Shown: one piece after another, positions 12,038 through 45,784 of the stretch | Layout: every line of letters begins with the position of its first letter | How positions within the stretch are numbered: position 1 is the stretch's first letter | Origin: Desulfobulbaceae bacterium | GTDB taxonomy: Bacteria > Desulfobacterota > Desulfobulbia > Desulfobulbales > SURF-16 | Assembly (NCBI GenBank): GCA_020444175.1 | Contig: JAHLLM010000003.1 | Coordinates: forward strand, 74,087 to 138,086 | Direction: 5' to 3' | DNA: 64,000 nt | Notes under the pieces: model-generated | Seen by the model: only the letters and a program-made list of their open reading frames with translations | The model's database searches: none | What the model was told of the DNA's origin: nothing | Program-made: the position numbers and the translations under genes

Positions 12038-12244
12038 CTTTTACTTACCCACAGCGCATAATCGATAAACAAGACATCCAGTACACGAAAAAAACAACCT
12101 CAGAAGAACAGAGTTGACAGCGGTCTCAGTGAAGAAGCTGGATTGAAGGCCTGTTTCGTGCTTTGACGGAATCATTTTACCAAATGACAAAGAAAAGGGA
12201 TTCTGCTTTTGGCACCTACGAGAGTCCCGCAAAGGAGGAATGAG

Positions 12245-29213: not shown

Positions 29214-32135
29214 ATGAAGCAACAGAGTCTGCGGGGCAAAATAACGCTGGTTCTGGCCATTGTCGCCATTGTCAGTTTTAGCGTGTCCGCCCTGTATACC
29301 GGCATTGGCAGATATCGGGAAATAACCGAGGAATATGCGACAACCATGCAGGCCCGCATCAATGTTGCCCGCTCACTGCTTACAGCCAGTCTTTTGCTTC
29401 ATGATGAAGCCATACAGTCCATTCTCCAGAAATCAGCGTCATTGACTCCTGAACAGCAATTACAGGCAATAAAAGATTCGCTCCACTTTGATCCCCCTGG
29501 AGATACGTACTATATCCTTGATTCCCGGAACAGGGTTGTTCTCTGCGAAGATCACTTCTCCGACTATCGTGGTCTTGATTTCAGCGGTATCATTCCGCAT
29601 GGCAGCAACACCGACCAAAAATTAGTGTTTCATCACCAGTCTTTGCTCAATAAACTTTCCGTTGTTTCAATAGTCTACCCATTGAAAAATAACTGCAAGC
29701 TGGTGGTTGAAAGAAGTCTTGCCAACATTATTCCCAGCATGAGTCATTTTGAGCAGGGGGAACTCTACGGAGAAGAACTTTTTTTCGTTCTCGCTACTAC
29801 AGGTAAAACCATCTATCACCCCGACAGGTCACTGGTAAAAAGCAGGCATAATCTTTATTTTGATCTCAAAAATATGACAACTGCTGATGAGACAGGTCTC
29901 TTTTCATTTCAATACCATGGTAAACCATTTGTTGCCTTTCGGGAAAATTTCCGCAATCCACTTGACTGGATCATCTATTATTGTATCCCGCGCAACCTGA
30001 TGATCGACAAAATAAAAAAAACCATTTTAGGCCAACTCACCTTTTTATTCCTCCTGTTCTGCGCACTCTTTTTTATTCTCAACTATTTTCTGGCCCGTTT
30101 TTTCTCCCAACCTGTAAGTGATTTTGTCGCAACTCTTAAACACTCAAAGGATGAAGACAGTTTGATTTTCCATCCCGGCATTTCAGCAGACATCATTGAG
30201 TTTGAGAAGATCTTTGAGGCAATTACCAGCCGTGACGAAGCCGTTACCCAGTCAACGGAGAGGCTGAAAACTGTGCTCGACAGCCTTGACGCCATGGTAT
30301 ACGTGGCTGACATGGACACCTTTGAACTCCTCTTTGTCAACCGTTATGGACGCGATATATGGGGAGATATCAGCGGCCAAAAATGCTATCTCTCCCTGCA
30401 GCACAATCAGAATGAGCCATGCCCCTTCTGTACAAACAAATTGCTGCTTGATAAAGAAGGACAGCCCACGGGAATTCATGTCTGGGAATTTCAAAATACC
30501 GTGGACGGAGAATGGTACGAGTGCAGAGACCAGGCAATACCATGGATTGACGGTCGTATTGTGCGCATGGAAATCGCCACCAACATATCCAGACGTAAAC
30601 AGGCGGAAGCAGGGCTTCTTGCCGAGAAGGAAAGACTTTCCGTCACCCTGCGCTCCATTGGCGATGGCGTCATTACCACTGATACTGAGGGCAGGATTGT
30701 TCTTGTTAACAGAGTCGCGGAGTCTTTGATCGGGCGAACGCAAAGGGAGGCTTTCGGCAGACCGTTGCAGGATGTTTTTCATATCATCAATGAAAAAAAC
30801 GGCCAGACCTGCCCAAATCCTCTTGATAAAATTTTTGAAAGCGGCGAGATAGTCGATCTGTCCAGCGACACCACTCTTATTTCCAGGGATGGAACCAGAA
30901 GGACCATAGCTGACAGCGGTTCGCCAATTCGTGATCAGGATAGCAAGATTATTGGTGCTGTACTTGTTTTCCGGGATGTAACGGATGAGCTGAAAAAAGA
31001 AGAGGAACTGATGAAGGCGAGAAAATTAGAATCAGTGGGTGTGCTGGCAGGAGGAATTGCCCATGATTTTAATAACATTCTGGTAGCAATCCTCGGCAAT
31101 CTGAGTCTTGCCGAACAATACATCAGCCCGGACAACGCGGACCTCTGCTCCCTTATCCAGGAAGCGGAAAAAGCCTCTCTGCGTGCCAAAAATCTGACCC
31201 AGCAGCTCCTCACCTTTTCCAAGGGCGGGGATCCTATAAAACAGACAGCCTCCCTTGAAAATCTCATCAAAGAGCCCAGTGATTTCGTGTTAAGCGGCAG
31301 CAACGTGGCCTGCAACTACGTCATACCCGACACCATCCGGATGGTTGACGTCGATCCGGGACAGATCAGCCAGGTTATACAAAACCTGATTATCAATGCC
31401 AAGCAGGCCATGCCAGGCGGCGGCACCATTGAAATAACATGCTCGAACATAAGCGATGAAGAAAAGAACTTCCCGCACACACTGAACAAAGGTAAATATG
31501 TTCTCATTAATATCAAGGACACCGGAACAGGTATTGCCGCCAGTATCCTTGATAATATTTTTGACCCATATTTCACCACCAAGCAGGACGGAAGCGGTCT
31601 CGGGCTTGCCGTCTGCCACTCTATTATCAGCAAACACGGGGGACTCATCTCAGTTCAATCTGCAGAAGGTCAAGGAACAACGTTCAGTATCTATCTTCCT
31701 GCTTCCGATGCCGGAAAATCAGGTACAGCTCATAAAAAAGAGAATTTAACCAAAGGAAGCGGAACGGTCCTGCTCATGGATGATGAGGCAACCATTCGCA
31801 CCGTGGCCCAACGAATGCTCACGCATCTCGGTTATGATGTTGTCCTTGCCTCGAATGGCGAGGAGGCCATTAAACTTTACAAGGAACGACTGGGCAGCGA
31901 AAATGCCATAGATGTCTCCATCATGGATCTGACAATTCCAGGCGGAATGGGCGGCCAAGATGCCGTCCGAGAGATACTTGACGTTGATCCGGATGCCAAA
32001 GTTATTGTATCAAGCGGCTACTCCAATGATCCGGTCATGGCTTCTTTTGCAGAATACGGCTTCAAGGCCGCGGTGGCAAAGCCTTTTAACCTGACAGAAC
32101 TTGGCAAAACAATAAAATCAGTTCTTTCAGAGTAG
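29214..32135 (+). CDS. Hybrid sensor histidine kinase (dCache-like domain, PAS x2, HisKA, HATPase_c, REC)
   Basis: 973 aa. Two TM helices flank a ~240-aa domain. PAS with CPFC, second PAS, H-box [21 protein letters not shown] (LMDDEA...MDLTIPG). Confidence 0.9.
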   Translation: MKQQSLRGKITLVLAIVAIVSFSVSALYTGIGRYREITEEYATTMQARINVARSLLTASLLLHDEAIQSILQKSASLTPEQQLQAIKDSLHFDPPGDTYYILDSRNRVVLCEDHFSDYRGLDFSGIIPHGSNTDQKLVFHHQSLLNKLSVVSIVYPLKNNCKLVVERSLANIIPSMSHFEQGELYGEELFFVLATTGKTIYHPDRSLVKSRHNLYFDLKNMTTADETGLFSFQYHGKPFVAFRENFRNPLDWIIYYCIPRNLMIDKIKKTILGQLTFLFLLFCALFFILNYFLARFFSQPVSDFVATLKHSKDEDSLIFHPGISADIIEFEKIFEAITSRDEAVTQSTERLKTVLDSLDAMVYVADMDTFELLFVNRYGRDIWGDISGQKCYLSLQHNQNEPCPFCTNKLLLDKEGQPTGIHVWEFQNTVDGEWYECRDQAIPWIDGRIVRMEIATNISRRKQAEAGLLAEKERLSVTLRSIGDGVITTDTEGRIVLVNRVAESLIGRTQREAFGRPLQDVFHIINEKNGQTCPNPLDKIFESGEIVDLSSDTTLISRDGTRRTIADSGSPIRDQDSKIIGAVLVFRDVTDELKKEEELMKARKLESVGVLAGGIAHDFNNILVAILGNLSLAEQYISPDNADLCSLIQEAEKASLRAKNLTQQLLTFSKGGDPIKQTASLENLIKEPSDFVLSGSNVACNYVIPDTIRMVDVDPGQISQVIQNLIINAKQAMPGGGTIEITCSNISDEEKNFPHTLNKGKYVLINIKDTGTGIAASILDNIFDPYFTTKQDGSGLGLAVCHSIISKHGGLISVQSAEGQGTTFSIYLPASDAGKSGTAHKKENLTKGSGTVLLMDDEATIRTVAQRMLTHLGYDVVLASNGEEAIKLYKERLGSENAIDVSIMDLTIPGGMGGQDAVREILDVDPDAKVIVSSGYSNDPVMASFAEYGFKAAVAKPFNLTELGKTIKSVLSE

Positions 32136-32159
32136 TCTGTTAATCTTAACCGTTCTTCT

Positions 32160-32363
32160 TTAAAGGCAGCCGCACATCTGCTCGAAATTCTCACACTCAT
32201 TTCGATTTTCAAAGGGACACACTTCTTTTTGGAACCATTGGAGTTTTGGGCACCAGAAGCGCCTTTTAAAGGGTTCGTTACACCCCTTTTTGGAGAGCTT
32301 CTGTCTTTTTCTATTACCATGATGCACCATATTTTCCTGAATCGTAAATCTCCATAATGCCAT
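32160..32363 (-). CDS. Small 67-aa Cys-rich protein
   Basis: Strong SD (AAGGAGG, 7 nt before the ATG at 32363). MALWRFTIQENMVHHGNRKRQKLSKKGCNEPFKRRFWCPKLQWFQKEVCPFENRNECENFEQMCGCL has six Cys. No family recognised. Confidence 0.45.
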   Translation of the reverse strand: MALWRFTIQENMVHHGNRKRQKLSKKGCNEPFKRRFWCPKLQWFQKEVCPFENRNECENFEQMCGCL

Positions 32364-32958
32364 TTCAGTTCCTCCTTTTTCGTCAGTCCAACTTACAAAA
32401 AGAATTTTGACGGAGAAAAAATGAGCTCGCTGGCCCATATGGTTACTGGTAAATACTCCTCTTTTAAACGATTACGCCCGCAACTCCTGACTTACACTTA
32501 TGCCGGAACCCCTCCCAGCGAGTTCAAATCATCTTTATGTGGTAATTTTGCAAATTTCAGACCACACACAACCTCCAGACAGAGAACACTTTTCATATCA
32601 GCAGGTTACCCACCAAAAAAGAAAACTGGAAACATTTTAACAGTCGACAATAAGGGTTATTTGCCCCTTCCCCCTCTCTTTTGTCAAACACCATAATGCC
32701 GCCGTTATATGAAAAGAAAGGTCGACTTTGTTGCTGCCAGACGCACTCCTCCTCAAAATTTTTTTTCCATAAAACCCGGATGTTAATGTTGACATCCTAA
32801 AGCCTATCAATTAAAAGTTTATAATATTGTGCCACAAAATAGTATCTCTTCGGCAAAATTGAAGAATAGTAAAAAAGGAATATTTTTTTCATGTATTACG
32901 CATCAACGCTTTAGAATCCCTACTAATTTTCATACAAACAAAAGAGGTATTCTTTACT

Positions 32959-34713
32959 TTGAAAAGACACATCGCCCTTCAAAAAGCCCTTCCTCTTGTA
33001 GCAGAAAAAGCTCATCACTTTGAGAAAAGTAACAAATCCATCCATAGGGCTCTTGGAATATTGGGGGAGTCAGCAGATCTCTCCCGTGTATATGTCATCA
33101 TGCATCATGCTAATCTCCCAGGGCATGTGCTGAGCGAATGGACAGCCTCCAAAATTGCACCATTGAGTAATATTTCCAAACGTAATGGTTTTCCATATAA
33201 AGGAAAGAGATATGTCTATTGGAAAAAAGCACTCGAAGATGGCCGTCCCGTTTACATCCTTTCAAGCATTTTATCCATTTCTCCCAGACAAGTCCCTTCT
33301 CTAGAGGAAATCGAATCAATCGTCTTATTTCCCATCAAAATAGGAAATACTCCCTGGGGAGTAATCGGATTTGAAGGTATCTGGAATAAATCCAATTGTT
33401 CAGAAAAAATAATTGAAGACCTCAAAATAGCGACTAATATCCTTGCAGGCGCAATCCGCAGCAAAAATATTGAAAAAATATTACGCCAAAGCAGATCACG
33501 TTATCGCAATGTGATCGACAAACAGGTCGACGTAGTTTGCCGTTACAACGCTGATTGGACACTCACTTTCGCCAATAATGCATTCTGCACATGTTTGGGT
33601 CTCAAACGCCAAGACATACTTGGTCAGGATATACGGAATTTTGTTCCTGTTACATTCCAAGAGAGAATAAAAGAATGTACCTCATTGATTAATCAAGAAT
33701 GTCCTGCTTTGACTAAGGAACACAACCTTGAGCTTCCGAACGAAGAAAAACATTGGTTTCAATGGATTGACAATGGAATTTTTTCACACAGCGGAACCAT
33801 ACTTGAGTATCAGTCCACCGGCCGGGATATTAACCAACAGAAAATTAAAGAACTTGAACTGGAAAAAAAACGGAAAATAATTAATCAAAAACTGGAAGAT
33901 TGCACAGAAAAACTAGCCCAAACATGTGATCAATTGGTGCGGAGCGAAAAAATGGCTTTGCTTGGTCTGCTTGTGGCCAGCATTGCCCATGAAATCAATA
34001 ACCCAAACAACTTTATAAGCTTTAATGTCCCGATTTTACGAGATTATGTCCAAAAGATAACAACGATTCTCACCAACGAATCGGTAAAATTCCACGATTA
34101 TGATTTATTCGGCATGTCTTTTCCTGAATTCCTTAAAGACCTTTCTGAAATAATTAACAATATTGATCATGGCTCAAGCAGGATCAATTCAATAGTATCA
34201 AGGTTAAAAGAATTTGCGAGGCCTAAAAGTAACGAAGATATACTCCCTGTGAACATACGACCTGTCATTGAACAGGCTACGGAAATTTGTCGTCGTCAAG
34301 TCATGGAAAAAGTGAAATCATTGGAAGTAAATATACCGTCAAACCTGCCAATGATTGTCACCAGTCCGCAAATTCTTGAAGAAATAATCATCAATCTTAT
34401 CAACAATGCAGCTCAAGCGGCAGACAAAGAAAATTCATGGATCAAAATTAACGTCGAACTGGGAAAGACAGACAGGGATTATTTTATTCTGGAAATTAAA
34501 GATAACGGTTCTGGTTTCAGCAGCAAGGTCAGAAGAGAAATTTTCAAACCATTTTATACGACAAAAGAAAAAGAGTTGGGCACCGGATTGGGGTTGTATA
34601 TCAGCAAAAACTTGATCGAAAGTATAGGCGGACGTCTCGAAGTAAAGAGTAAATTGTATGAGGGAAGCACATTCCGTGTGGTTGTTCCCAGACTTTTACA
34701 AAATCTCCAGTAA
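32959..34713 (+). CDS. Cytoplasmic sensor histidine kinase (GAF-like, PAS, HisKA, HATPase_c)
   Basis: TTG start. No TM helices. H-box ASIAHEINNPNNF, N-box LINNAAQA, G-boxes DNGSGF and GTGLGLY. Sits immediately upstream of a sigma-54 regulator. Confidence 0.85.
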   Translation: MKRHIALQKALPLVAEKAHHFEKSNKSIHRALGILGESADLSRVYVIMHHANLPGHVLSEWTASKIAPLSNISKRNGFPYKGKRYVYWKKALEDGRPVYILSSILSISPRQVPSLEEIESIVLFPIKIGNTPWGVIGFEGIWNKSNCSEKIIEDLKIATNILAGAIRSKNIEKILRQSRSRYRNVIDKQVDVVCRYNADWTLTFANNAFCTCLGLKRQDILGQDIRNFVPVTFQERIKECTSLINQECPALTKEHNLELPNEEKHWFQWIDNGIFSHSGTILEYQSTGRDINQQKIKELELEKKRKIINQKLEDCTEKLAQTCDQLVRSEKMALLGLLVASIAHEINNPNNFISFNVPILRDYVQKITTILTNESVKFHDYDLFGMSFPEFLKDLSEIINNIDHGSSRINSIVSRLKEFARPKSNEDILPVNIRPVIEQATEICRRQVMEKVKSLEVNIPSNLPMIVTSPQILEEIIINLINNAAQAADKENSWIKINVELGKTDRDYFILEIKDNGSGFSSKVRREIFKPFYTTKEKELGTGLGLYISKNLIESIGGRLEVKSKLYEGSTFRVVVPRLLQNLQ

Positions 34714-34772
34714 CTGTTACCCAAAACATCAACCTAAATTGAAATGATAGTTTCTTATTTAGGAGAAAAAAA

Positions 34773-36152
34773 ATGAAAAATTACAATATTATCGCAATTG
34801 ATGATGAACTCAATTTTTTAAAATCCATCAAGCGGGGATTGTCCATATCCGGTTTTCGCAATGTATTGACAGAGGAAGATTCTTACAAGGCGCTCTCTCT
34901 TATCAATCGAAAAGAATCTCCCATAGACGTAGCTTTAATCGATATCTCCATGCCCGGGATGAATGGAGTTGAATTACTTGAACAGATAAAAAAGATAAGT
35001 CCTGACACGAAATGCCTAATGATAACTGGGATCAATGATGCCGAACTGGCCGTCACATGCATTAAAAAAGGAGCCAGCGATTATATCTTAAAACCAATTA
35101 CAGCCAAGGATTTGGTGGGAGCGGTTAAAAAAACTTTAAAAAAGAAAAAACTTCTCGACAGCATGAAAGAAAATCGCAGGTCTTCAACTGGAAATTTAAA
35201 AAGACCTGAGGCATTTCGAGATATAATCACATCTTCTTCTCGCATGTTTGATATTTTGCAGAAAGCCGAACTTCATGCAGCCAGTGACATTCCCATCATA
35301 ATCACAGGTGAAAGCGGAACAGGAAAGGATCTTCTCGCCCAGGCAATCCATAAAACAAGTCCTCGGGTAAAATTTCCATATACCCCTGTTAACATGACGT
35401 CACTTACTGAAAATATCTTTGATGCGGAATTTTTCGGGCACACAAAGGGAGCATTTACAGGAGCTATTCGTGAGCGTAAGGGTTATTTGGAGCAAACAAA
35501 CCACGGTACAATTTTCATGGATGAAATCGGACATGCGCCTCTTGCTTTCCAGGCAAAATTGCTGCGGGTTCTGCAAGACGGGGAATATATCAAATTAGGG
35601 ACAAGTCAACCGCGACAAGTAGATATTCGTTTTATAACAGCAACAAATGAAAATCTCGATCAACTGCTCGACAAGGGACTGTTTCGTAAGGATTTCTACT
35701 ATAGGCTTAATGGGGCCAAGCTGCACCTTCCGCCCTTAAGAAAAAGGAAAAAGGATATTCCCTTGCTTATCAAAAACTTTCTTGTACAATTTTCAGGCAC
35801 CGGCACCCTGCTAGAAATTGACGAACAGGTTCTCTCTATTCTCCTTGAATATGACTATCCAGGCAACATAAGGGAGCTAAAGTCTATTGTCCAATCATCG
35901 ATAAATTTAGCCCAGGGACAGGTTATAACAGTTCCATGCCTGCCGCACAGTCTGCAAAAATTCAAACCGCAGAAAAATAAGCACAACAAAAAACAAACGA
36001 AAGTCAATGTTTCCTCGCTCTCAGGAGTTGAAAAAAACCACATCATTGCAACCTACAACGCGACGGGCAGAAACAAAACTCAAACTGCCAGACTGTTGAG
36101 AATTGGCCTCAACACCCTCCGAAGGAAATTGATGGCATACGGTGTCGAATAA
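34773..36152 (+). CDS. Sigma-54-dependent response regulator (REC + AAA+ + HTH)
   Basis: REC (IAIDDE...IDISMPGM), GESGTGKD, GAFTGA, C-terminal HTH (NKTQTARLLRIGLNTLRRKL). Confidence 0.9.
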   Translation: MKNYNIIAIDDELNFLKSIKRGLSISGFRNVLTEEDSYKALSLINRKESPIDVALIDISMPGMNGVELLEQIKKISPDTKCLMITGINDAELAVTCIKKGASDYILKPITAKDLVGAVKKTLKKKKLLDSMKENRRSSTGNLKRPEAFRDIITSSSRMFDILQKAELHAASDIPIIITGESGTGKDLLAQAIHKTSPRVKFPYTPVNMTSLTENIFDAEFFGHTKGAFTGAIRERKGYLEQTNHGTIFMDEIGHAPLAFQAKLLRVLQDGEYIKLGTSQPRQVDIRFITATNENLDQLLDKGLFRKDFYYRLNGAKLHLPPLRKRKKDIPLLIKNFLVQFSGTGTLLEIDEQVLSILLEYDYPGNIRELKSIVQSSINLAQGQVITVPCLPHSLQKFKPQKNKHNKKQTKVNVSSLSGVEKNHIIATYNATGRNKTQTARLLRIGLNTLRRKLMAYGVE

Positions 36153-36366
36153 CAAGGCGAAAATTTGACGGTCTCGCCAAAAGTCTCAAAACGAGCTGGA
36201 GCAACACACAGAATCAGCAAGTTAAGTGGACTGAAACCGGTGAAACGTCTTTTTATGATTTCATCAAAATTTCAGTATCTCCGGAATAAGAGTGAATGCA
36301 CCCTGCCAATATGGCACCTGAAAAAACTCATCATTCCAAAAGGATATACTCGTGTATATGCCAAAT

Positions 36367-36382
36367 TGGCACTCCAGAAGCA
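36367..36382 (+). promoter_or_regulatory. Candidate sigma-54 promoter
   Basis: TGGCACTCCAGAAGCA has correct GG-N10-GC spacing and a perfect -24 box. It is 278 nt upstream of the PilZ gene. Confidence 0.4.
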
Positions 36383-36479
36383 AAAAAAAGCTTTTTTCTT
36401 TTCCGAACAACATCTTCCCAAACTCCCAACTTATTGATTTTTAGAAATAAAATAATCAAATCCTTTTTTTGAGTATTGC

Positions 36480-36495
36480 TGGTATGATAAATGCG
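36480..36495 (+). promoter_or_regulatory. Candidate sigma-54 promoter (weaker -24 box)
   Basis: TGGTATGATAAATGCG has correct GG-N10-GC spacing. It is ~165 nt upstream of the PilZ gene. Confidence 0.3.
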
Positions 36496-36659
36496 ACCTC
36501 AAACACTTGTTAGCGACGCTTACCCAAAACTCAAACGCCGTAACAAAACATATCCTAATATGTACAACCACTTCGCGTTGTAAATGCTTTTTTACCGTCT
36601 CACCTGCGACAGGGATGCAGATGTCCTGAAAAGGAATAAATGATTAGAGGAGATGTACT

Positions 36660-37037
36660 ATGTCCGAGAGGTGTTGCTTGAGAGAGCGAAGAAAATTTTC
36701 ACGATACGCAGTCAAAAGCGGGTTATTAGCAATTACCGATAAAAGAATTGGCGAAATTATAGACATAAGCATAAATGGGCTTGCATTCCGCTATATCTTC
36801 TGGGGAGATCAATCTATCAAATCCCCCAATTGCGACCTGAAAATATTAGTTACCGATGAGTCTTATTTATTGGAAGAAATTCCAATAAAATTTGTTTCAG
36901 ACAACTTTCTGCAAAATAGTTTCACCTTCAGTTCGTTAGTCATGAAACGGAGCGGGGTCGAATTTTATGACATGCCCCCTCTCCAAGTAACCCAGTTAGA
37001 GAATTTCATTTCAAAATATTCTTTGTGGGAATTGTAA
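36660..37037 (+). CDS. Stand-alone PilZ-domain protein (putative c-di-GMP receptor)
   Basis: RRKFSR (RxxxR) followed 22 residues later by DISINGLAF (D/NxSxxG). 125 aa. SD AGAGGAG upstream. Confidence 0.7.
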   Translation: MSERCCLRERRKFSRYAVKSGLLAITDKRIGEIIDISINGLAFRYIFWGDQSIKSPNCDLKILVTDESYLLEEIPIKFVSDNFLQNSFTFSSLVMKRSGVEFYDMPPLQVTQLENFISKYSLWEL

Positions 37038-37284
37038 TTCTTTTTTGGGGCATTAGGAAAATAACGAGAAAACCTTACTGTATCAAAAAAGAGACAGGTT
37101 CCAAATTGGATTGGTCACATCACTAACCAACCGTGTTTATTAAATTTATTTCTTGAAACTTATCCAAAATGGCGTAGAAGTCCCACAAAAAATTACTCTC
37201 CCCAGCTTACTCTCTCCATCGTGTGCCCACTTTAACTATCTGTATTCACAGTCATTCCCATCTAATACAAAAGAAAATTCCGAC

Positions 37285-37300
37285 TGGCACAACAAGTGCT
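37285..37300 (+). promoter_or_regulatory. Sigma-54 promoter upstream of the subtilase gene
   Basis: TGGCACAACAAGTGCT has a perfect -24 box, TGC at -12 and GG-N10-GC spacing. It is 87 nt upstream of the ATG at 37386. Confidence 0.55.
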
Positions 37301-37385
37301 CTATTTGAGGTGCAGGCATTTTTAGATTTTTAATAGAAGGAAATCAGGAATATTTTTTACACATAACAACTTTATGGCCCTATAA

Positions 37386-39938
37386 ATGAGCAAAAAAACC
37401 TTACTAATAATAATTACAACTATTCAAATTATTATTTTTCCATGTAAAACAAATGCTTCACCTGGAGAAGCGGAAGACATGGAATTTCTCAAGAAAAGCA
37501 AAATATCACCATCACTCTATCAACAACTTGAACAAGGAGAGAATCAAAATAGTTTTTTCAGGGTTATAGTCAGAATCCATCGAAAACATTCAGAATCTCT
37601 GCAATCTGCTAATTTCATGAAGTCACTCGGACAAGTGATAAATAAACTAAGAAAAGATGCTTCCCCTAAGCAGGATGCTATCAGTGAATTCATCTGGAAG
37701 CTCAAAAACCAAAGGGCAGAAGAGTCACAGAAAAAATATAGCAATTTTTCCGTTAAAACCAACGAAACAGGAAATATACACAAATTCTGGATTACCAACA
37801 GCATAGCGGCAACGCTGTCTTCCGCAGAAATTGAAGAGCTGGCGGCTAACCAAGACGTCATGGAAATTGTCGAAAACAAGGTGCTTAATGTACCCCCTAT
37901 CACAGCAAGCAGTCTAGACATCATTGACCCAGGAGATGAAAATATTTGGAATTTATCTGCTGTCGGGATGAATGACCTAGACCTTGACCTTAACGGAAAG
38001 GGTTTGCGTATAGGTCATTTGGACACAGGAATTGATGTTCTTCATCCTGATTTCACAAACAAATTGATTGACTGGGCCGAGTTTGACAATCAAGGAAATA
38101 AAATTGAAAGCGAGCCCCATGACAGCCATTATCTCGGGCATGGAACGCATACAGCCAGCATCATGATTGGAAATAAAACTGGAATTGCTCCCGGCGCATC
38201 TCTCCTTTCAGCCCTGGTTTTACCCGGAGGTTCCGGAACTATCGAGCAGGTTATGGCCGGGATGGAATGGATACTCGACCCAGACGATAATCCAGACACA
38301 GATGACGGCGCACAGATCGTCAATATGTCGTGGGGAATGTCAGCTAATTCATCCGTTCTCAAAGAAGCTATTCAGAACATGACAAATGCCGGAGTTCTTC
38401 CAGTGTGCGCTATTGGCAATGAAGGCAGCTATATTACCTATTCGCCAGGTAATTTTCCTAATGCAGTCGGGGTAGGAGCGGTAAATGAAAACAATGATGT
38501 TCCCTTTTTCAGCGGCGGGGGAATAATTTGGTGGGACAATTCCGTCAACATGAAACCGGACATCACTGCTCCCGGAGTGGATATTGTTGGGATCGGAGGC
38601 CAGGGAGAATACCAGGCGCTCTCAGGAACATCTTTCGCTGCTCCGCATGTAACGGGCGCTGCGGCTATTCTGCTGCAGAGGAACACACAACTTTCCCCTT
38701 TCCTGCTTGCAGAATTTCTTTTCAACACCTCTTTGGATCTGGGCGAAACCGGACAGGATATAGAGTATGGACGGGGAGTCTTGAATGTTGCCTCAGCAGT
38801 AAAATTCCTTGAACGCTATTCCGACCGGTTTGAAAGCGCTGACCTTGTGGTGAAGCAGTCAAACGAAAATCACGATCTCCCGTTCTCGCTTTACAAGACC
38901 TACTTTTCTGATGGACAAAGTAATTTTACTAAAGACGAAATCAGCAATTTATACATTTACTCAGACTCTGATGACTCCAGGAGAAAGACATTAGGATTCG
39001 CTGACGTCAACGGTGACGGCTACTCAGATTTAATAATCAAGCAAAACATATCTTTGAACTCAAAAGAGTATCAGGTGAGTTTTATTGTTCACCTCTCCTC
39101 CGACGCGCGGGGGCTCTCAACTTCTTCAACCACCTGGTATTCATACACTTCTACGACAGCAGATCAATATGATTTTGTCGGGTTCGGTGACGTCAACGGT
39201 GACCATAATGCTGACATCGTTCTTTCGTCCTTGGAGCAAACACATTCAGGGCAAAAAATACATATCACCCCGCTGCTTTCAAATGGCATAAGCGCATTTG
39301 AAAGCGCAAGCTCGGAATGGCAGACAATATTTTCCGATCACTACCACTCTGTCACAATGCATCTGGGAGATGCCAATGGAGACAACAAAACCGACCTTGT
39401 TTTTGCCAAGTTTTTCAATGATGCATTTGCCACTTATCCGGTTGATTATTTCGTCAGCCTATCAAACGGCAGCATATTCAAGATGGCTTGTCCATGGATT
39501 ACCATTTATTCCAATTACATTAACGGCAGGCCGGAATTTCTTTCTATCTCCGATGTGACAGGTGACGGATCGGCTGATCTCATTTTATCGGGCTACAGCT
39601 CCTATTGGCAAACTGACAAAAAAGAAATTTATGTATGTCCATCAAACAGTTCATCGCGATTCTCAGAGAAAGAACATTGGGCAACAATACCGTGGAATCC
39701 AACAAAAACTCTGAATTCCATCGAAGATGTTAACGGCGATGGCCTGAAGGATTTAATTATAAACGGCACGAATGAAGCAACAAACAACTGGGCGGTTACC
39801 GTATGGCTGTCCAATGGTCGCAACGAACTCATTGAGGCAGAAGAACCTTGGCTGGTTTTAGATCAAACTTCATTAGCTTCGGAACCGCAAATTGTCGGGG
39901 TGGCCAATGTCGGCCTGGGTGACTGGTCTGATAGATGA
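37386..39938 (+). CDS. Secreted subtilisin-like serine protease (S8) with N-terminal propeptide and C-terminal FG-GAP/VCBS-type repeats
   Basis: Signal peptide. Catalytic triad contexts HLDTGID, HGTHTAS and SGTSFAAPHVTGAAA. The C-terminal half has five DxNGDG-type repeats: DVNGDGYSDL, DVNGDHNADI, DANGDNKTDL, DVTGDGSADL, DVNGDGLKDL. Confidence 0.9.
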   Translation: MSKKTLLIIITTIQIIIFPCKTNASPGEAEDMEFLKKSKISPSLYQQLEQGENQNSFFRVIVRIHRKHSESLQSANFMKSLGQVINKLRKDASPKQDAISEFIWKLKNQRAEESQKKYSNFSVKTNETGNIHKFWITNSIAATLSSAEIEELAANQDVMEIVENKVLNVPPITASSLDIIDPGDENIWNLSAVGMNDLDLDLNGKGLRIGHLDTGIDVLHPDFTNKLIDWAEFDNQGNKIESEPHDSHYLGHGTHTASIMIGNKTGIAPGASLLSALVLPGGSGTIEQVMAGMEWILDPDDNPDTDDGAQIVNMSWGMSANSSVLKEAIQNMTNAGVLPVCAIGNEGSYITYSPGNFPNAVGVGAVNENNDVPFFSGGGIIWWDNSVNMKPDITAPGVDIVGIGGQGEYQALSGTSFAAPHVTGAAAILLQRNTQLSPFLLAEFLFNTSLDLGETGQDIEYGRGVLNVASAVKFLERYSDRFESADLVVKQSNENHDLPFSLYKTYFSDGQSNFTKDEISNLYIYSDSDDSRRKTLGFADVNGDGYSDLIIKQNISLNSKEYQVSFIVHLSSDARGLSTSSTTWYSYTSTTADQYDFVGFGDVNGDHNADIVLSSLEQTHSGQKIHITPLLSNGISAFESASSEWQTIFSDHYHSVTMHLGDANGDNKTDLVFAKFFNDAFATYPVDYFVSLSNGSIFKMACPWITIYSNYINGRPEFLSISDVTGDGSADLILSGYSSYWQTDKKEIYVCPSNSSSRFSEKEHWATIPWNPTKTLNSIEDVNGDGLKDLIINGTNEATNNWAVTVWLSNGRNELIEAEEPWLVLDQTSLASEPQIVGVANVGLGDWSDR

Positions 39939-40052
39939 GTTTTGCCGTTGAATGGATAAATGATCACCAAAAAATAATAAAAATACTTTGCAGCAGCCGT
40001 ATGTAATTTCCACCCAACCTCTCTCTACAATTTTTGAAAGGAGAAAATAAAA

Positions 40053-40988
40053 ATGAAAAAAAGCACCTCAATAATGGCCGTTACCTTTGTTCTCATGACA
40101 TACTCGCAAGCTCATGCAAGCATTGTCTGGCATAACGATTTTCAGCAGTTCAATTACAGTGTGAATCAAAATGGTGGAGTATTGTACGAAGCACCTACTT
40201 CTTTTAACCCGGCAGCAAGCCATACTGGCTCCATCACGGATAGCACCGGTTCCTATTCGGCTCAGCTCAATTGTCAGCACAGTTCTTATCCGTTGGCAGG
40301 GATATTGGAAATGAAGGCTGGAGCACAAGGCAACGGGACAATGACAAGCCCGGAAAATGGCTTGCAGGTTAGAGCATATGCCCAAATGAATCTGAACAAC
40401 TTCAACCCGGCTTCGCAGGGTGTTGACGTATCTCAATGGGTCTTTTCAAATGTTACAAGAAACCTTTCTGTATCCTCTGCCGGCAATTATCAATTTAGTA
40501 CCAACCTGAGCGGTGATGCCGACTTTAATACGTTTTGGGGCAATGATTTTTTCAAGTCTTCATATTCTGTTGAAGGGCAGGCAAGAATCAACAAGTACTC
40601 AATAGACAGCAGCGGCAACATAAAGGCTCTAGGTGACGGTGATGCCACTGTTGAATTCACATTAAGTGATACGAATAAAACTGGTAGCACCGCAGTGTCC
40701 CTTGAATCCCAGACCTCTGAAGGAGATGACATTTTCTATCAAGTGGTCCTTGCCTTAACCCTGAAAACCTCCTTGCAAAACTTCAGCATGCAATATGGTT
40801 TAATAGATCCTACTGGTAATCCGAATTTTAAAGGCCCATTTTTTCTCGGAGACGAATCAAATCCCATGCAACTGGATGCTGCTTTGGCTCCTGCCGTTAC
40901 AGCAACGCCTTTACCTGGCTCACTGCTTTTATTGCTTTCCGGCATAAGCGGACTCAGTGTATTTCGCCGCTTTTTTAAAAAGGATTAG
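40053..40988 (+). CDS. Secreted protein with PEP-CTERM / VPLPA-CTERM-like C-terminal sorting signal
   Basis: Signal peptide (MKKSTSIMAVTFVLMTYSQAHA). The C-terminus ATPLPGSLLLLLSGISGLSVFRRFFKKD has a Pro motif, a TM helix and a basic cluster. AAAGGAG RBS upstream. Confidence 0.6.
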   Translation: MKKSTSIMAVTFVLMTYSQAHASIVWHNDFQQFNYSVNQNGGVLYEAPTSFNPAASHTGSITDSTGSYSAQLNCQHSSYPLAGILEMKAGAQGNGTMTSPENGLQVRAYAQMNLNNFNPASQGVDVSQWVFSNVTRNLSVSSAGNYQFSTNLSGDADFNTFWGNDFFKSSYSVEGQARINKYSIDSSGNIKALGDGDATVEFTLSDTNKTGSTAVSLESQTSEGDDIFYQVVLALTLKTSLQNFSMQYGLIDPTGNPNFKGPFFLGDESNPMQLDAALAPAVTATPLPGSLLLLLSGISGLSVFRRFFKKD

Positions 40989-41159
40989 AGACATCACCAG
41001 CTCATTTTTTTTCGTATACATACCAAACTTGAACTACTGGTGACTGTAACCAATCAAACAATAATGCATACAATGAAGAGGGGGTGATAACGGGAATTAA
41101 GGTGTTTGAGTAAGAAAGCCATTTATTGATGAACAAACAAAAACTTAATGAGGGAAAAA

Positions 41160-42023
41160 ATGAAAAAAATTAAAATGCTCGGTTTAACGTGTGCAGGTGT
41201 CTTATTACTGTCCTCAACTGCCATGGCAGGCAACATCCCGGAATTTGATGCAGTTGGCGACGATTCTATCAATTACTTTGCAGTGGGAAACCCGGTTCAA
41301 TACGGCCAGGTAATTAACAATAATATCGGGCCATTAGGACCACTGGAACTCTTCAGCGACTTTACCGAAGAATACTTCTCCAACACAGCGGGCATGCTGT
41401 TCCCTGACCCCTGTTTTCCTGGATATACTTCAGCATTGATAGACGTCTGGAACGAGGCTGTCTATGAATGGAACATTGTTTTGCAAATGAAACCTGAAAG
41501 TGACATTAATCTCAACATTTATGACTGTGTATTGAAGCACAATGAATTTAATGTCTGGGGAGGAGCAGAACAGACTGGACGTTACAGGGCACCATGGGGC
41601 CAGCTGTTTTTTACCCCTTCAGCCAACCCAACCGTTACGGTCATGGCTTCTCCTGGCCCCAATGCAACTCCTGGCTTTGTAAATCCATTTTATTTGGATG
41701 CCCGCACTCTCCCTGGTCTGTTTACGGTTGCAATGGTTGATACCCCATATACATCCAAGGCACTTTGGGAAGAAGGCATAGTTATGGTGCTTCCTGAGAC
41801 AGGCCTGGTCAATGCAATGGGCCAATCAGTCTATAACCTGAAACAGGGTGATCAAATTAAATGTACAATTACCGTTCCCGGTAACAACACCGCCGACATC
41901 CGCTACGGACAAGACAATGTCATTCTGAAGTACATCGGCATAGTCGGTACTTGGTGGTATGCATTTGATAGTACCATCGCTGATTCTGGCTTTGATGAAA
42001 TGGTTGCTGCTGACGCAATCTAA
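41160..42023 (+). CDS. Secreted hypothetical protein
   Basis: Start set at MKKIKMLGL. Signal peptide ends in AMA. No recognisable domain and no C-terminal sorting tail. Confidence 0.55.
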   Translation: MKKIKMLGLTCAGVLLLSSTAMAGNIPEFDAVGDDSINYFAVGNPVQYGQVINNNIGPLGPLELFSDFTEEYFSNTAGMLFPDPCFPGYTSALIDVWNEAVYEWNIVLQMKPESDINLNIYDCVLKHNEFNVWGGAEQTGRYRAPWGQLFFTPSANPTVTVMASPGPNATPGFVNPFYLDARTLPGLFTVAMVDTPYTSKALWEEGIVMVLPETGLVNAMGQSVYNLKQGDQIKCTITVPGNNTADIRYGQDNVILKYIGIVGTWWYAFDSTIADSGFDEMVAADAI

Positions 42024-42048
42024 ATAGCAAGAGCCGGCACATTATGAA

Positions 42049-42082
42049 AGTTGCACCTGTGGATTAATCACAGGTTGCAACT
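42049..42082 (+). other. Strong stem-loop (13-bp stem with one bulge) after the 41160-42023 gene
   Basis: agttgcacctgtg-gattaat-cacaggttgcaact. No U-tract follows, so it may be a processing or stability hairpin rather than a terminator. Confidence 0.35.
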
Positions 42083-42182
42083 GTCCAAAACCAGGGAAGG
42101 GTATGTATCATACATATCCTCTCCTGGCACCCACATTCATTTTTTCCATGGAAAGGATGCATTTTCTGGATAAGGAAGTGTC

Positions 42183-43505
42183 ATGATAAAAAAATCTGAC
42201 TCAAATTTCATTTTATTCATCATCGTCGCCATTTTCCTGCTTTGGAGCTTAAGTTACATCTCCTTGACCAATATTCAAGCTAACCGCAAAGTAAAGCTCC
42301 CTGCTGTCGAAAACAAGATATCTGCCAAATCTCCCAATAATAGCACTGAACACTCCAAACCATCCGGCACGAAGGAGAGTTCGATAATGAAAGCGAGCAG
42401 GAGCAACACAGAGCAGCAACTGCTTGAACCTTCTGATATCTCATCAAAAATACAAACTATTCTCGCCCTGAGAAAACAGGCATCTCAAGAGGGAATTCAG
42501 CGTCTTGCAGAGTTTGTTGAAGATAGCAGTACGGTGGTACAGACAGAAGCTATTGACGCATTGGGAAATATCGCCCTTAACAGCAACCAGACAAATTCTG
42601 TTTTTAGAATTTTGAAAGCAAAAGCAACTGATACAAATTTTGCGTCCCGGGGCCAGGCATTGATAACTGCTTCAATGCTCGAAAGGGATAGTCTTATTTT
42701 ACCGGTGATTGAAAATTATATTTCTGAAAGCCAAGAAGAACAAATAGGCTATGCTGTTAAGGCAATGTCTTTTATCGAAACGCCCAACTGCATTCCTCTC
42801 CTACAAAAGGTTCTTGAAGTAAATGATGACAACAATATTGAACGCAATGCTTTTATAATTTTAGGAAAAATTAATACTCCGGAAGCAAAAACAATTATAC
42901 GGGATGCTGTTTTCTCCATAGATGCAGACACACAGTTGAACAGCACCTGGGCCATCTCCCGGCTTAATAATGATGAATATATACCAATTTTAATTGATGC
43001 TATTGAACAAGATGAACTTTACAAGGATGCTCTTGGAAGCATAGCAACAAGCCTTGCTGCCCCAAAGGTTTTTGGTACGCTTTTCCAACGGGAAGATATC
43101 CACCGGGAACGCAAAGTCGGCTGGCAGAAAATATTTGCCCAAAACCTGGCAGGGACCCCCAGAAACTTACAAGAGCAGATCAGCGAGGCTACGGAACGTT
43201 TTGTGCCCCCCCTGCCTACATCAAATACTGAAACGCCACAAGAAATTGAATCAGACACAAAAGAGCAGATGGACAGCGACAATCCGGAGGAGAACGAAAG
43301 TCAGAAAAATTATACCTATAAAAATCTTGCCAGCGTGTTTAATGATCCCGATCCATATGAACGGAGATCGGCCTGGCTGGTTTATAAGCGATATGCTGAT
43401 TTTTCCGATCCTGCTGACCTTGAGAAAATTAGGCAAGCAACTGAAAATGCGGACCCTGTTATCCGGGAAGATGCAAAAAAAATTCTTGCCAAAATAGCGA
43501 ATTAA
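42183..43505 (+). CDS. Membrane-anchored HEAT/PBS-lyase-like repeat protein
   Basis: N-terminal TM (FILFIIVAIFLLWSLSYISL). Repeated ~30-aa units of the V..EAIDALGNI / R..A.IILGKI / ...AISRL type. Acidic C-terminal region. Confidence 0.55.
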   Translation: MIKKSDSNFILFIIVAIFLLWSLSYISLTNIQANRKVKLPAVENKISAKSPNNSTEHSKPSGTKESSIMKASRSNTEQQLLEPSDISSKIQTILALRKQASQEGIQRLAEFVEDSSTVVQTEAIDALGNIALNSNQTNSVFRILKAKATDTNFASRGQALITASMLERDSLILPVIENYISESQEEQIGYAVKAMSFIETPNCIPLLQKVLEVNDDNNIERNAFIILGKINTPEAKTIIRDAVFSIDADTQLNSTWAISRLNNDEYIPILIDAIEQDELYKDALGSIATSLAAPKVFGTLFQREDIHRERKVGWQKIFAQNLAGTPRNLQEQISEATERFVPPLPTSNTETPQEIESDTKEQMDSDNPEENESQKNYTYKNLASVFNDPDPYERRSAWLVYKRYADFSDPADLEKIRQATENADPVIREDAKKILAKIAN

Positions 43506-43674
43506 CAAACGGACCACAGTAACCTGTGTGACAATATACAGCGAAAACGACTGAATACAGAGACAAAGTATCCCGGTGCCTCAAGGATTTTCTTTCTGAA
43601 AAATGTTTTTTGTTGCATGCCCATACATCCAAAAACCATTCTTGAACGCCCACAACGCAAATGAGGATTACCAA

Positions 43675-44547
43675 ATGAAACAAGAAACTTACCCACTTTT
43701 TATTTTATTTTTTGCTTCGATTCTGACCCTTATGCAAACCTCCGTTGTCCCCTCTTGCTTTGCCGATTCAAATGACCTGATAATTGCCAGCGTAAATAAC
43801 GTCAACATTACAAGTAGCCAGTTGGACAATGTTGTTGCTGCCTATAAGGAGAAAGCAAAAAAAGCTGATGTTTCCGAAAAAGAAAAGAAAGCGTTGATGC
43901 AAAGCTTGATACAACGTCAGGTTTTTTTGCAGCAGGATGACGTTGAGGCTCTGCGAAACAATGAGGAAGTAGTCAAAAAGACCAAAGAATATGAAAATAA
44001 TCTTATTATTCGCCATTTTCTTCAAAACCAGATAGGAAAGCAAATACATGTCACCGAAGGCGAAATAAAAGCATACTATAAAGAAAATTTAGAAAACTTC
44101 ATAATACCCGCCAGAGTCGTAGCGCGACATATTTTACTCAAGACGCATGAAGATGCGGAAAAAGTAATGGTAAAACTCAAAGCAGGAGAAGATTTTGGCC
44201 AAATGGCCCGGCAATTTTCCATTGATCTCCCCATGGCGCTCGAAGGGGGGCAGATGGGAATTATTGAGAAAGGAAAATCATTACCGGAGCTTGAAAAAGT
44301 TCTCTTTAGTCTGAAAGAAAATGAAATCAGCGAAATTGTAAAAACAAAATTCGGATATCATATTATTACCGTTGACAAGATAACTCCTGAAACAACAAGG
44401 TCCCTTGACCAAGTCAACAGTCAGATCAGGCAAGCGCTTTTGCGAGAAAAACAAGGCGCTCTTTTTATTGATATCGTGGTAAAGCTAGAAAAAAATGCAG
44501 ATATCAAAATATATAATGAGCGTATTGCAGGAAAATCAGTGGACTAA
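43675..44547 (+). CDS. Parvulin-type peptidyl-prolyl cis-trans isomerase (PpiC/SurA/EpsD-like), exported
   Basis: Signal peptide. Rotamase domain ARHILLKT...FGQMARQFS...GGQMG...FGYHIITV. Confidence 0.8.
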   Translation: MKQETYPLFILFFASILTLMQTSVVPSCFADSNDLIIASVNNVNITSSQLDNVVAAYKEKAKKADVSEKEKKALMQSLIQRQVFLQQDDVEALRNNEEVVKKTKEYENNLIIRHFLQNQIGKQIHVTEGEIKAYYKENLENFIIPARVVARHILLKTHEDAEKVMVKLKAGEDFGQMARQFSIDLPMALEGGQMGIIEKGKSLPELEKVLFSLKENEISEIVKTKFGYHIITVDKITPETTRSLDQVNSQIRQALLREKQGALFIDIVVKLEKNADIKIYNERIAGKSVD

Positions 44548-44641
44548 AATATTATTGGGCTGTTGTAGCAATTTACAGATTTGAAGCGTAATTTTTCGTG
44601 TATGTCTTCTTTTAACAGTAAAATTGTTGGTGAGGTAATAT

Positions 44642-45340
44642 ATGTCCACTTTCATGTGTAAATCTTTTTTGCTACTTCTGCTTTTCTCAATGTTTGCCGC
44701 GTCAAAAGCAGAAAAAGCAATTGCCGCCACATATAAATTGAAACCAACCGATGACTCTTATGCGGATCAACTGTCTCCAGGGAACAACTATTCTGATTTA
44801 AATTATTTGATCAGCAGAAACTCAATTGCTGCAGCCTATACTTATTTGAAATTTTCACTAAGTGACATTCCATCTGACGAACAGATTACAGGTGCCGTTT
44901 TAGGTCTTTATTCTCAATACGGATATCGTTCATGGGTAACCCTGAGCCATATATCCGACGATTCCTGGATAGAAAGCGAGGTTACATGGAACAATCGACC
45001 AGAAAATAACACTCAAACATTTGAGTTGGACAGACAGTATCTCGATTTACCTTATAACTGGATACTCTGGGACTTATTTGCCGAAGAAATGTGGAATCCA
45101 GACATTGATAAGGATGATGGATATATTTCCCTGATGACCCAAACAACAGGTTCTGATCTCATTTTTGCAAGCAGTATTTTTTTTGTCAGTGAGCAACAGC
45201 CTTATTTACTACTCATAACAGAACCAGAACAAGATCAGACGACCAACGCGACGCCCACCCCCATACCTTCATCATTTGTGCTGCTTGGAATTAGCTTGCT
45301 TACCCTGATGAAGAAAAATAGAAAAAGTTCAAACTTGTAA
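44642..45340 (+). CDS. Secreted DNRLRE/CBM96-like domain protein with a PEP-CTERM-like C-terminal tail
   Basis: Signal peptide. TDDSYADQ...YTYLKFSLSDIP...WIESEVTWNNRP matches my recollection of the DNRLRE domain. The C-terminus PTPIPSSFVLLGISLLTLMKKNRK has a Pro motif, TM helix and basic cluster. Confidence 0.55.
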   Translation: MSTFMCKSFLLLLLFSMFAASKAEKAIAATYKLKPTDDSYADQLSPGNNYSDLNYLISRNSIAAAYTYLKFSLSDIPSDEQITGAVLGLYSQYGYRSWVTLSHISDDSWIESEVTWNNRPENNTQTFELDRQYLDLPYNWILWDLFAEEMWNPDIDKDDGYISLMTQTTGSDLIFASSIFFVSEQQPYLLLITEPEQDQTTNATPTPIPSSFVLLGISLLTLMKKNRKSSNL

Positions 45341-45408
45341 TTTGGGGCAACGACAATAATACCTGGAGAAAAAAAAGAAGAGTCAGCACAGCATTCATAA
45401 CTGAATCA

Positions 45409-45435
45409 GGCAGGGTCTCAGTGCTCTGCCTTTTT
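45409..45435 (+). terminator. Weak candidate terminator at the right edge of the A+T-rich island
   Basis: ggcag...ctgcc followed by tttttcttt. The stem is only 5 bp with a 12-nt loop. Confidence 0.3.
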
Positions 45436-45784
45436 CTTTGGGCCTCTTGGAGACAACAACCGGGGAGTTGCGTTGAACAAGCATCTCCCCCTTATCAAAA
45501 TAATTCCCCAGATAAAACCTCAGTATTATCGGTACCGACACCGGGTACGCAGTTGCATAATCAACCATTTCTTTTCACTTCGGCCAATTAATTAAGAGCC
45601 ATCGAGATCACCAGCAACTTCACTCTCTTTTTGCTAAAACCGCAATAATCAGTTACAAAAGAGGGGAAGTGACAAACTCTCATCTCGTTAAGCCGGATGG
45701 CAGCATATTGCAAATTGCATAATACTCCTTGCGAGCTATATTTTGTACACCAGATGCACTCAAACAGCCTCCCCAGACACCACC

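Follow-up and report, generated by a model that had tools for sequence, protein, structure and literature searches.

The biofilm matrix proteins RbmA, RbmC and Bap1 of Vibrio cholerae are controlled by VpsR and VpsT with cyclic di-GMP (c-di-GMP). Genes for PEP-CTERM proteins, the cargo of exosortase sorting systems, are for the most part scattered singly, each with a sigma-54 motif of its own, and the kinase PrsK spans the membrane (Haft et al. 2006, PMC1569441). Little is known of the proteins that bind together the aggregates, biofilms and syntrophic consortia in which sulfate-reducing Desulfobacterota live. Here we analyze a block of nine genes in a 64,000-nucleotide stretch (hereafter the window) of a metagenome-assembled genome (MAG) of a Desulfobulbaceae bacterium (assembly GCA_020444175.1, contig JAHLLM010000003.1, positions 74,087 to 138,086). 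The block runs from a histidine kinase gene to the gene of a protein with a CBM96 carbohydrate-binding module; accessions MCB2180869-MCB2180876 are on this contig. At its center are an exported protein of an unnamed family, here called P7, a HEAT-repeat membrane protein and a parvulin peptidyl-prolyl isomerase (PPIase), together with a second exported protein of an unnamed family, P6.

We find that P7-HEAT-PPIase, usually accompanied by a P6-domain protein, is a conserved core across the Desulfobacterota and stands under different regulators in different genomes. With moderate confidence, we read the block in the window as a c-di-GMP-linked, self-regulated module for a conditionally expressed surface or matrix structure serving adhesion or aggregation. 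The module holds new protein families; it is not a new kind of system. Our analysis defines the P7-HEAT-PPIase and P6 module, two families without a Pfam or NCBIfam model, and a candidate cis-regulatory scheme of dyads and sigma-54 promoters, all of which can be tested in cultured carriers such as Desulfosarcina alkanivorans PL12.

A conserved core across the Desulfobacterota

Gene content was derived from Pfam and NCBIfam scans and from the translations, which recovered every gene listed for the block in an earlier sequence-only reading (Table 1). The contexts of related loci, designated by L numbers, were taken from look-ups and collection scans and mapped with tblastn.

Table 1. Genes and cis-acting elements of the block (positions in the window)
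Feature	Position	Strand	Evidence or sequence
Soluble sensor histidine kinase, PAS/HisKA/HATPase	32959-34713	+	Pfam matches
NtrC-type sigma-54 enhancer-binding response regulator, REC, AAA+ and Fis-type HTH	34773-36152	+	Pfam
Perfect dyad, distal candidate enhancer site of the pilZ promoter, TGCCAATATGGCA	36304-36316	+	
Perfect dyad, proximal candidate enhancer site of the pilZ promoter, TGCCAAATTGGCA	36359-36371	+	
Sigma-54 -24/-12 element of pilZ, TGGTATGATAAATGCG	36480-36495	+	TGGTACAATAAATGCT in L013 and L017
Stand-alone PilZ-domain protein, 125 aa	36660-37037	+	Pfam PilZ (PF07238) match below cut-off; both motifs
Degenerate dyad, distal candidate enhancer site of the operon promoter, TTCCAAATTGGAT	37099-37111	+	
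Degenerate dyad, proximal candidate enhancer site of the operon promoter, TCCAAAATGGCG	37163-37174	+	
Sigma-54 -24/-12 element of the S8 protease operon, TGGCACAACAAGTGCT	37285-37300	+	TGGCACGACAAGTGCT in L013, TGGCACGACACGTGCT in L017
Secreted subtilase: signal peptide, I9 propeptide, S8 domain, C-terminal FG-GAP repeats	37386-39938	+	Pfam
P6, exported protein of an unnamed family, ~270-aa domain, VPLPA-/PEP-CTERM-type tail	40053-40988	+	ends TPLPGSLLLLLSGISGLSVFRRFFKKD
P7, exported beta-sandwich protein of an unnamed family	41148-42023	+	signal peptide
Strong stem-loop directly 3' of P7, possible intra-operon attenuator or mRNA-stabilizing hairpin	42050-42081	+	stem ~13 bp
HEAT-repeat protein, one N-terminal membrane helix	42183-43505	+	HEAT_2 63.9 bits
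Parvulin PPIase, membrane-anchored or exported, PrsA/PpiD-like	43603-44547	+	Rotamase 76.2 bits
DNRLRE/CBM96-domain protein, PEP-CTERM-like tail	44642-45340	+	ends PTPIPSSFVLLGISLLTLMKKNRK
Intrinsic terminator closing the operon	45408-45441	+	9-bp GC-rich stem then TTTTTCTTT

The full nine-gene block, from the kinase to the CBM96 protein, recurs in L013 and L017 with different flanks; the genes are co-conserved as a unit there, which supports the sequence-only reading on this point. The part from the S8 protease to the CBM96 protein recurs in L004 (Desulfobulbaceae GCA_009773475.1) and in L016, where a MalT/BTAD-type regulator stands in place of the two-component system. L024 and L029 each hold parts of the block on contigs that end inside it. 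The most regular features of the related loci are the succession of P7 and the HEAT gene (20 of the 26 loci with enough sequence) and that of the HEAT gene and the PPIase gene (16 of 17). Of 17 loci, 14 encode a P6-domain protein, five the CBM96 protein and four the S8 protease. A separate observation concerns L002 (Desulfobacterium sp. TRIP AH-1, LT984855.1), in which an open reading frame (ORF) resembling an insertion-sequence transposase (11335-12399) lies between P7 and the HEAT gene and breaks their adjacency.

Two subtypes can be distinguished. In subtype A, to which the window belongs, both P6 and the CBM96 protein carry C-terminal tails of the PEP-CTERM kind; in the other (subtype B), P6 has no such tail. 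Among the carriers of the tail-less subtype are Desulfobacterium TRIP AH-1, Desulfosarcina alkanivorans PL12 and Desulfoluna. In this subtype the N-terminal domain of P6 is joined to modules of the TSP3, PKD, InlB-B or dockerin-like kind, and a second P7 domain is found at the end of a protein of ~550-650 aa. In Desulfobacterium, a PilZ gene and a VpsT-like regulator gene precede the module. Since many genomes have the core but no PEP-CTERM tail, exosortase sorting is not what defines the module. Literature searches found no description of this module, and its interpretation as a defence system was rejected, as PADLOC gave generic domain matches only.

We note two further observations on tail-less loci. 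The P6-domain proteins of L041 (2319-3461 and 7800-8960) and L050 (6765-8252) end in dockerin-like repeats (DVSGDGKLGFQEAIYALQ...), which hints at cohesin-dockerin tethering in these genomes. The locus of D. alkanivorans PL12 (L008, NZ_AP021874.1, 5290128-5310967), a cultured organism with a complete genome, holds three P7 copies, the HEAT and PPIase genes and two P6-domain genes; this strain could serve as a host for experiments on the tail-less subtype.

P7 has no Pfam or NCBIfam family match. In none of the best 120 of its 516 homologues, which are 55-88% identical, does Pfam match the P7 domain, and all those with a named source are from Desulfobacterota. Searched exhaustively with a profile, 1.84 billion representatives yielded only 172 clusters at 50% identity; the family is narrow. 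P7 is also the best conserved gene of the block, with ~78-79% identity in L013 and L017 versus 40-66% for the others, and it contains many invariant D, E, Q, R, Y and K residues. Its AlphaFold2 (AF2) model is a confident beta-sandwich (predicted local distance difference test score, pLDDT, 91.6) that Foldseek matches only weakly, to carbohydrate-binding modules, to TNF-like folds and to receptor-binding domains of phage tail fibres. After an AxA cleavage site, the mature protein begins with GNIPEFDAVG, which hardly varies. Cys89 and Cys127 co-vary strictly (both in 37 sequences, neither in five, no discordant case); an N-terminal cysteine and a cysteine in the C-tail are both present in 26 sequences and both missing from 11, with the cysteine shifted by one position in five. 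This co-variation indicates that P7 forms disulfides and is an extracytoplasmic protein. A few relatives have DUF11 or Ig-like repeats joined to the P7 domain; an enzyme domain is never attached. We propose that P7 is the main product of the operon.

P6, likewise without a Pfam or NCBIfam family match, evolves fast: its identity is 50-56% where that of P7 is ~78-79%. A profile search for further P6 homologues returned the same four sequences only, and profiles of P6 and P7 found nothing significant among PDB sequences. Homology between P6 and P7 was considered and rejected, as it is not detectable (hhalign probability 19%).

Each of the six operon products carries an N-terminal signal peptide or anchor. 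The hydrophobic segment of the HEAT-repeat protein lies at residues 5-31, and the N-terminus of the PPIase is hydrophobic. The subtilase matches Peptidase_S8 (176.2 bits), FG-GAP_3 (51.8) and Inhibitor_I9 (21.0), and its assignment to the S8 family is confirmed by visible Asp/His/Ser triad motifs (HLDTGID, HGTHTAS and GTSFAAPH); orthologues are found in L004, L013, L016, L017 and L029. The CBM96 protein belongs to its families by both DNRLRE_dom (NF033679; 63.8 against a cut-off of 34) and CBM96 (PF24517; 62.2 against 26).

Regulators and promoters of the block

The sensor kinase is a soluble protein in which no hydrophobic or membrane segment was found, and whose N-terminus gives a weak GAF match (E = 0.009). 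The adjacent regulator, recorded as a sigma-54 dependent regulator (MCB2180869.1), matches Sigma54_activat (199.8 bits), Response_reg (87.6) and HTH_8 (33.7). Orthologues of both occur in L013 and L017, at 49-50% identity for the kinase, which occupies the same position there, and 64-66% for the regulator. The sequence-only reading had likened kinase, regulator and PPIase to PrsK, PrsR and EpsD, an assignment that we abandon, since all three score under the cut-offs of the respective models. The kinase reaches 91.8 against a cut-off of 300 for PrsK (TIGR02916), with the C-terminal catalytic part alone covered, and lacks the membrane segment; the regulator reaches 292.5 against 502.6 for PrsR (TIGR02915), and the AtoC and NtrC models outscore PrsR; the PPIase reaches 46.7 against 108.9 for the EpsD family (TIGR02925), with only its N-terminal part matched.

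The PilZ protein retains both motifs for c-di-GMP binding, RxxxR as RKFSR and DxSxxG as DISING, and on these motifs it is a probable c-di-GMP receptor, in line with the link drawn earlier. Its orthologues are present in L013 and L017, that of L013 being listed with an unmarked PilZ match. In L002 and L013, the module is in addition flanked by PilZ genes that are not related to this one.

The activator gene lies directly 5' of the promoter region, in which we find two elements of the sigma-54 type. When the window is aligned with L013 and L017 over these regions, both -24/-12 elements prove to be conserved, versus coding regions that are only ~50-65% identical. The pilZ element lies 165 nt 5' of the PilZ ATG; that of the S8 protease operon, which has one mismatch to the consensus, lies 86 nt 5' of the ATG. 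Two dyads of the general form (T)(G/T)CCA-N3-TGG(C)(A) lie 5' of each promoter. The 64 kb contain no zero-mismatch match to TGCCA-N3-TGGCA other than those of pilZ, which are kept in L013 and L017 and lie 177 and 122 bp 5' of the -24 GG. Those of the operon are conserved blocks in the alignment, 186 and 122 bp 5' of the -24 GG. In all six promoters of the three loci, the proximal dyad is found at 113-124 bp and the distal dyad at 176-186 bp. A TGGCAC at 36367 was rejected as a sigma-54 promoter, as it belongs to the upstream dyad.

The arrangement of dyads and sigma-54 elements is the standard layout of enhancer-dependent promoters and ties both transcription units to the adjacent activator. 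Judged by sequence, the promoters have all the marks of sigma-54 dependence: a GG-N10-GC element in a TGGCAC/TTGCW-like context, conservation in orthologous loci, an enhancer-binding protein and upstream sites. Their conservation in L013 and L017 thus substantiates the sigma-54 wiring that had been predicted.

Downstream of the second promoter, six genes form an operon with short intergenic gaps on the same strand and a single terminator from 45408. Within this operon, a hairpin with a stem of 12-14 bp follows P7 in all five loci checked, although its sequence differs among them; folding z-scores for the whole region after P7 (window, L013 and L017) are -1.4 to -2.0 and not significant. The position of the hairpin suggests that P7 is made in excess over the products of the downstream genes.

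Other regulatory features of the window deserve mention. Signalling genes are unusually dense, with three sigma-54 enhancer-binding response regulators (3692-5119, 17314-18663 and 34773-36152) and at least six PAS or hybrid histidine kinases, those other than the kinase of the block being located at 5524-8163, 14883-17306, 18839-19942, 26214-28775 and 29214-32135. A perfect sigma-54 consensus, TGGCACGCTGGTTGCT, is found at 11475-11490 on the minus strand, upstream of a minus-strand cluster (10681-8248) of small ORFs, an FtrD-like protein and a MacB/FtsX-ABC transporter.

Function and origin of the block

On sequence grounds, the tails of P6 and of the CBM96 protein are of the PEP-CTERM/VPLPA-CTERM class, with borderline scores. 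The isolated P6 tail scores 25.8 with VPLPA-CTERM (TIGR03370; cut-off 25.35) and 16.0 with PEP_CTERM (TIGR02595; cut-off 16). The VPLPA-CTERM scores of orthologous P6 tails are 26.6 (L013), 31.6 (L016) and 17.8 (L004), and the L016 tail scores 21.0 with PEP_CTERM. Tails of CBM96 orthologues score 19.5 (L016) and 17.3 (L004) with PEP_CTERM, and that of L013 has no PEP_CTERM match. The layout is more constant than the scores: TP(L/V/I)P(G/A/S/Q/H), an LLLLSGL-like helix and RR/KK are found in seven of seven P6 and six of six CBM96 orthologues of subtype A. This motif, hydrophobic helix and Arg/Lys cluster stand at the extreme C-terminus of proteins with a signal peptide, which is the layout of PEP-CTERM and VPLPA-CTERM proteins, and the earlier assignment of the tails to this type is thus borne out by conserved layout and by scores near the cut-offs.

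No exosortase, exopolysaccharide (EPS) glycosyltransferase or polysaccharide exporter was matched among ~50 main ORFs scanned in the 64 kb, and no polytopic membrane ORF screened within +/-10 kb of related loci matched an exosortase. LptF/G (lipopolysaccharide export, 22-24 kb) and a glycogen phosphorylase (52.5-54.7 kb) serve housekeeping functions and bear no relation to such systems. The sequence-only reading had stressed PEP-CTERM logic without an exosortase. There is indeed none nearby, but this is the published norm rather than an anomaly: since PEP-CTERM genes are mostly dispersed (PMC1569441), the lack of a neighboring exosortase is expected. Tails of this type without a nearby exosortase are therefore normal and no sign of a new sorting mechanism, which corrects the over-reading. 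Among the membrane proteins of the window, we note a 367-aa ORF with ~8 hydrophobic segments (12209-13312, plus strand) that has no Pfam or NCBIfam match and overlaps the start of a cytochrome bd-subunit-I-like protein with a C-terminal cytochrome c domain (13270-14604).

We propose that the block works as follows. The soluble PAS kinase would phosphorylate the NtrC-type activator, which would bind the paired TGCCA-N3-TGGCA dyads and drive the two sigma-54 promoters, one yielding the small PilZ protein and the other the six-gene operon. The six operon products would be exported by Sec, with P7 as the main product, probably in excess given the hairpin 3' of its gene. The membrane-anchored HEAT protein and the PrsA/PpiD-like parvulin may act at the periplasmic face as dedicated helpers of P7 folding or assembly. 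P6 would serve as an adaptor, its conserved N-domain working with P7 and its variable C-terminus fixing the assembly to cell or matrix; in the window this C-terminus is the VPLPA-/PEP-CTERM tail, which would require an exosortase encoded elsewhere. The CBM96/DNRLRE protein, with the same type of tail, may add glycan binding, and the S8/FG-GAP subtilase may mature or remodel the assembly. A surface or matrix role is suggested by the fusions of the P6 N-domain and of P7 to adhesin-type modules, by the P7 fold, which resembles carbohydrate-binding modules or tail fibres, and by the CBM96 and FG-GAP domains; the intact PilZ motifs, and the PilZ and VpsT-like regulator genes that flank the module in Desulfobacterium, point to c-di-GMP.

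Several observations weigh against this surface or matrix role or against parts of it. The module encodes no outer-membrane export component, and P7 could consequently stay in the periplasm. The S8 protease, the CBM96 protein and the tails are missing from most core loci and are thus accessory. Foldseek searches of the P7 model against PDB and BFVD gave no better structural match than a weak, generic jelly-roll (TM-score <= 0.32), and the AF2 model of P6, built from four sequences, is unusable (pLDDT 37.6). Finally, some profile scores lie below their cut-offs: 18.4 bits for the PilZ protein (Pfam gathering cut-off 22.5), 20.6 for full-length P6 with VPLPA-CTERM (cut-off 25.35) and 13.5 for the CBM96 tail of the window with PEP_CTERM (cut-off 16).

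The lack of an outer-membrane secretion gene, common to all of the loci, is also what recommends a periplasmic module, in which P7 would be a binding protein or jelly-roll enzyme (e.g., acting on a glycan) folded by the HEAT protein and the PPIase, with the tails as plain inner-membrane anchors. P7 is conserved like an enzyme, with its many invariant polar and charged residues, its fold is jelly-roll or CBM-like, and both helper proteins are anchored in the inner membrane. We nevertheless think this unlikely, because modules typical of extracellular adhesins (TSP3, PKD, DUF11 and dockerin-like) occur fused to P6 and P7 domains, because the hairpin after P7 suggests the stoichiometric excess typical of structural subunits, and because the tails match sorting-signal profiles, not generic anchors. 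A nutrient-acquisition cassette, in which the secreted S8 protease is the effector of extracellular protein degradation and the rest are substrate-binding or tethering accessories, would agree with the intact catalytic triad and I9 propeptide and with the place of the protease as first gene of the sigma-54 operon. Yet the protease is absent from most core loci, while the best conserved and best linked genes are those of P7, the HEAT protein and the PPIase, and we give this explanation little credence.

The tails, together with sigma-54 promoters and upstream activator sites as described for PEP-CTERM genes (PMC1569441; PMC9850573), could also make the block an ordinary branch of an XrtA/PEP-CTERM exopolysaccharide system, with PrsK, PrsR and EpsD here and the exosortase in an EPS locus elsewhere. 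This is highly improbable: the three proteins fall far short of the respective models, the kinase is soluble where PrsK is transmembrane (PMC1569441), a PrsT-like TPR gene was not found, and EPS genes were found neither among the main ORFs of the 64 kb nor within +/-10 kb of related loci. Moreover, most core loci lack the tails, and regulators unrelated to these stand at the core elsewhere, a VpsT-like one at one locus and one of the MalT/BTAD type at another.

We therefore retain the c-di-GMP-linked surface or matrix module as our preferred reading. A bolder version of it, which we regard as rather unlikely, would make P7 the subunit of a previously unrecognized extracellular polymer, a fibre or lattice specific to Desulfobacterota, assembled by the HEAT and parvulin pair and tethered by interchangeable P6 adaptors (PEP-CTERM tail, dockerin or TSP3). 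If true, this polymer would represent a new assembly pathway of a surface structure for aggregation or syntrophic cell-cell contact.

The block is also set apart by its base composition, as had been noted from the letters alone. The GC content is 0.410 in 32136-45784 versus 0.477 in the left and 0.462 in the right flank; a 1-kb profile shows a trough from 32 to 46 kb, and among all 13.6-kb windows of the 64 kb, the one with the lowest GC starts at 32001. The functional 3' end of the block is the terminator at 45408-45431 rather than 45784. Mean GC content at third codon positions (GC3) is 0.41 for the nine genes of the block versus 0.52 for 33 flank genes (Mann-Whitney p = 2e-5), and that at second positions (GC2) does not differ (p = 0.54). 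The AT-richness is hence seated at synonymous and first codon positions.

Such a composition, seen also in L004 and L016, where GC3 of the module is below that of its own flanks (not clearly so in L013 or L015), could mark a recently acquired mobile genomic island with a foreign donor, and the genomic contexts do differ among the window, L013, L017, L004 and L016. Nonetheless, we consider this doubtful. After GC normalization, the dinucleotide signature of the block (delta* 23.6) falls within the range of same-sized flank controls (15-26); no tRNA genes, integrases or boundary repeats were found; tblastn of P7 against plasmids gave no match; and every named homologue is from Desulfobacterota. 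GC-poverty in several genomes fits equally well a trait of the accessory or surface gene class. Of the horizontal acquisition suggested earlier, the deviant composition stands, but the dinucleotide signature and the missing mobility marks do not bear it out. Two readings of the low GC remain, namely transfer within the Desulfobacterota or a general low-GC tendency of accessory surface genes.

The sole mobility gene of the window, a DDE transposase gene (60289-61455, minus strand; GC3 0.386), lies 15 kb from the block. Elsewhere in the window, two long overlapping plus-strand ORFs 3' of lptG (24196-25200 and 24953-25852) are uncertain gene calls, the second with a weak match to acyl-CoA dehydratase activase (31.5 bits versus a cut-off of 125).

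Comparison with known systems

Similarly to the V. cholerae matrix, the block combines secreted beta-sandwich, beta-propeller (FG-GAP) and lectin-like proteins with a secreted protease, a probable link to c-di-GMP and control by an NtrC-family activator or, in one related locus, a VpsT-type regulator. It differs in having a true sigma-54 promoter and no adjacent polysaccharide synthesis cluster, and no homology of P6 or P7 to Rbm proteins or Bap1 was detected, although no dedicated comparison was made.

The PPIase resembles the parvulin foldases PrsA of Firmicutes and PpiD of Proteobacteria in its N-terminal anchor, its SurA-N-like region and its genetic tie to one particular exported client, and its best NCBIfam matches are PRK00059, PpiD and PrsA. 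In contrast to these foldases, it scores far under the equivalog cut-offs and is always paired with a HEAT-repeat membrane protein. We know of no described system with such a pairing of a HEAT-repeat membrane protein and a parvulin.

With PEP-CTERM/exosortase sorting under sigma-54 control (Haft et al. 2006, PMC1569441; PepA of Aquincola and Zoogloea, PMC9850573), the block shares the C-terminal layout of a Pro-rich motif, a hydrophobic helix and a basic cluster, cargo genes located away from the sorting enzyme, an activator site preceding the sigma-54 promoter and, likely, a role in aggregation or matrix formation. However, its motif, TP(L/V/I)P(G/A/S), is of the VPLPA type, not PEP; its regulators are not PrsK and PrsR, and PrsT is missing; its cargo is encoded in a six-gene operon instead of single genes; no EPS locus lies nearby; and its core is found without tails in most genomes.

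In sum, what is new here is a Desulfobacterota module of two unnamed families together with a HEAT and parvulin pair, in which both the P6 anchors and the regulators are interchangeable and which, in subtype A, appears from its conserved promoter elements to be controlled by a traceable circuit of sigma-54 and activator that would also drive a PilZ protein.

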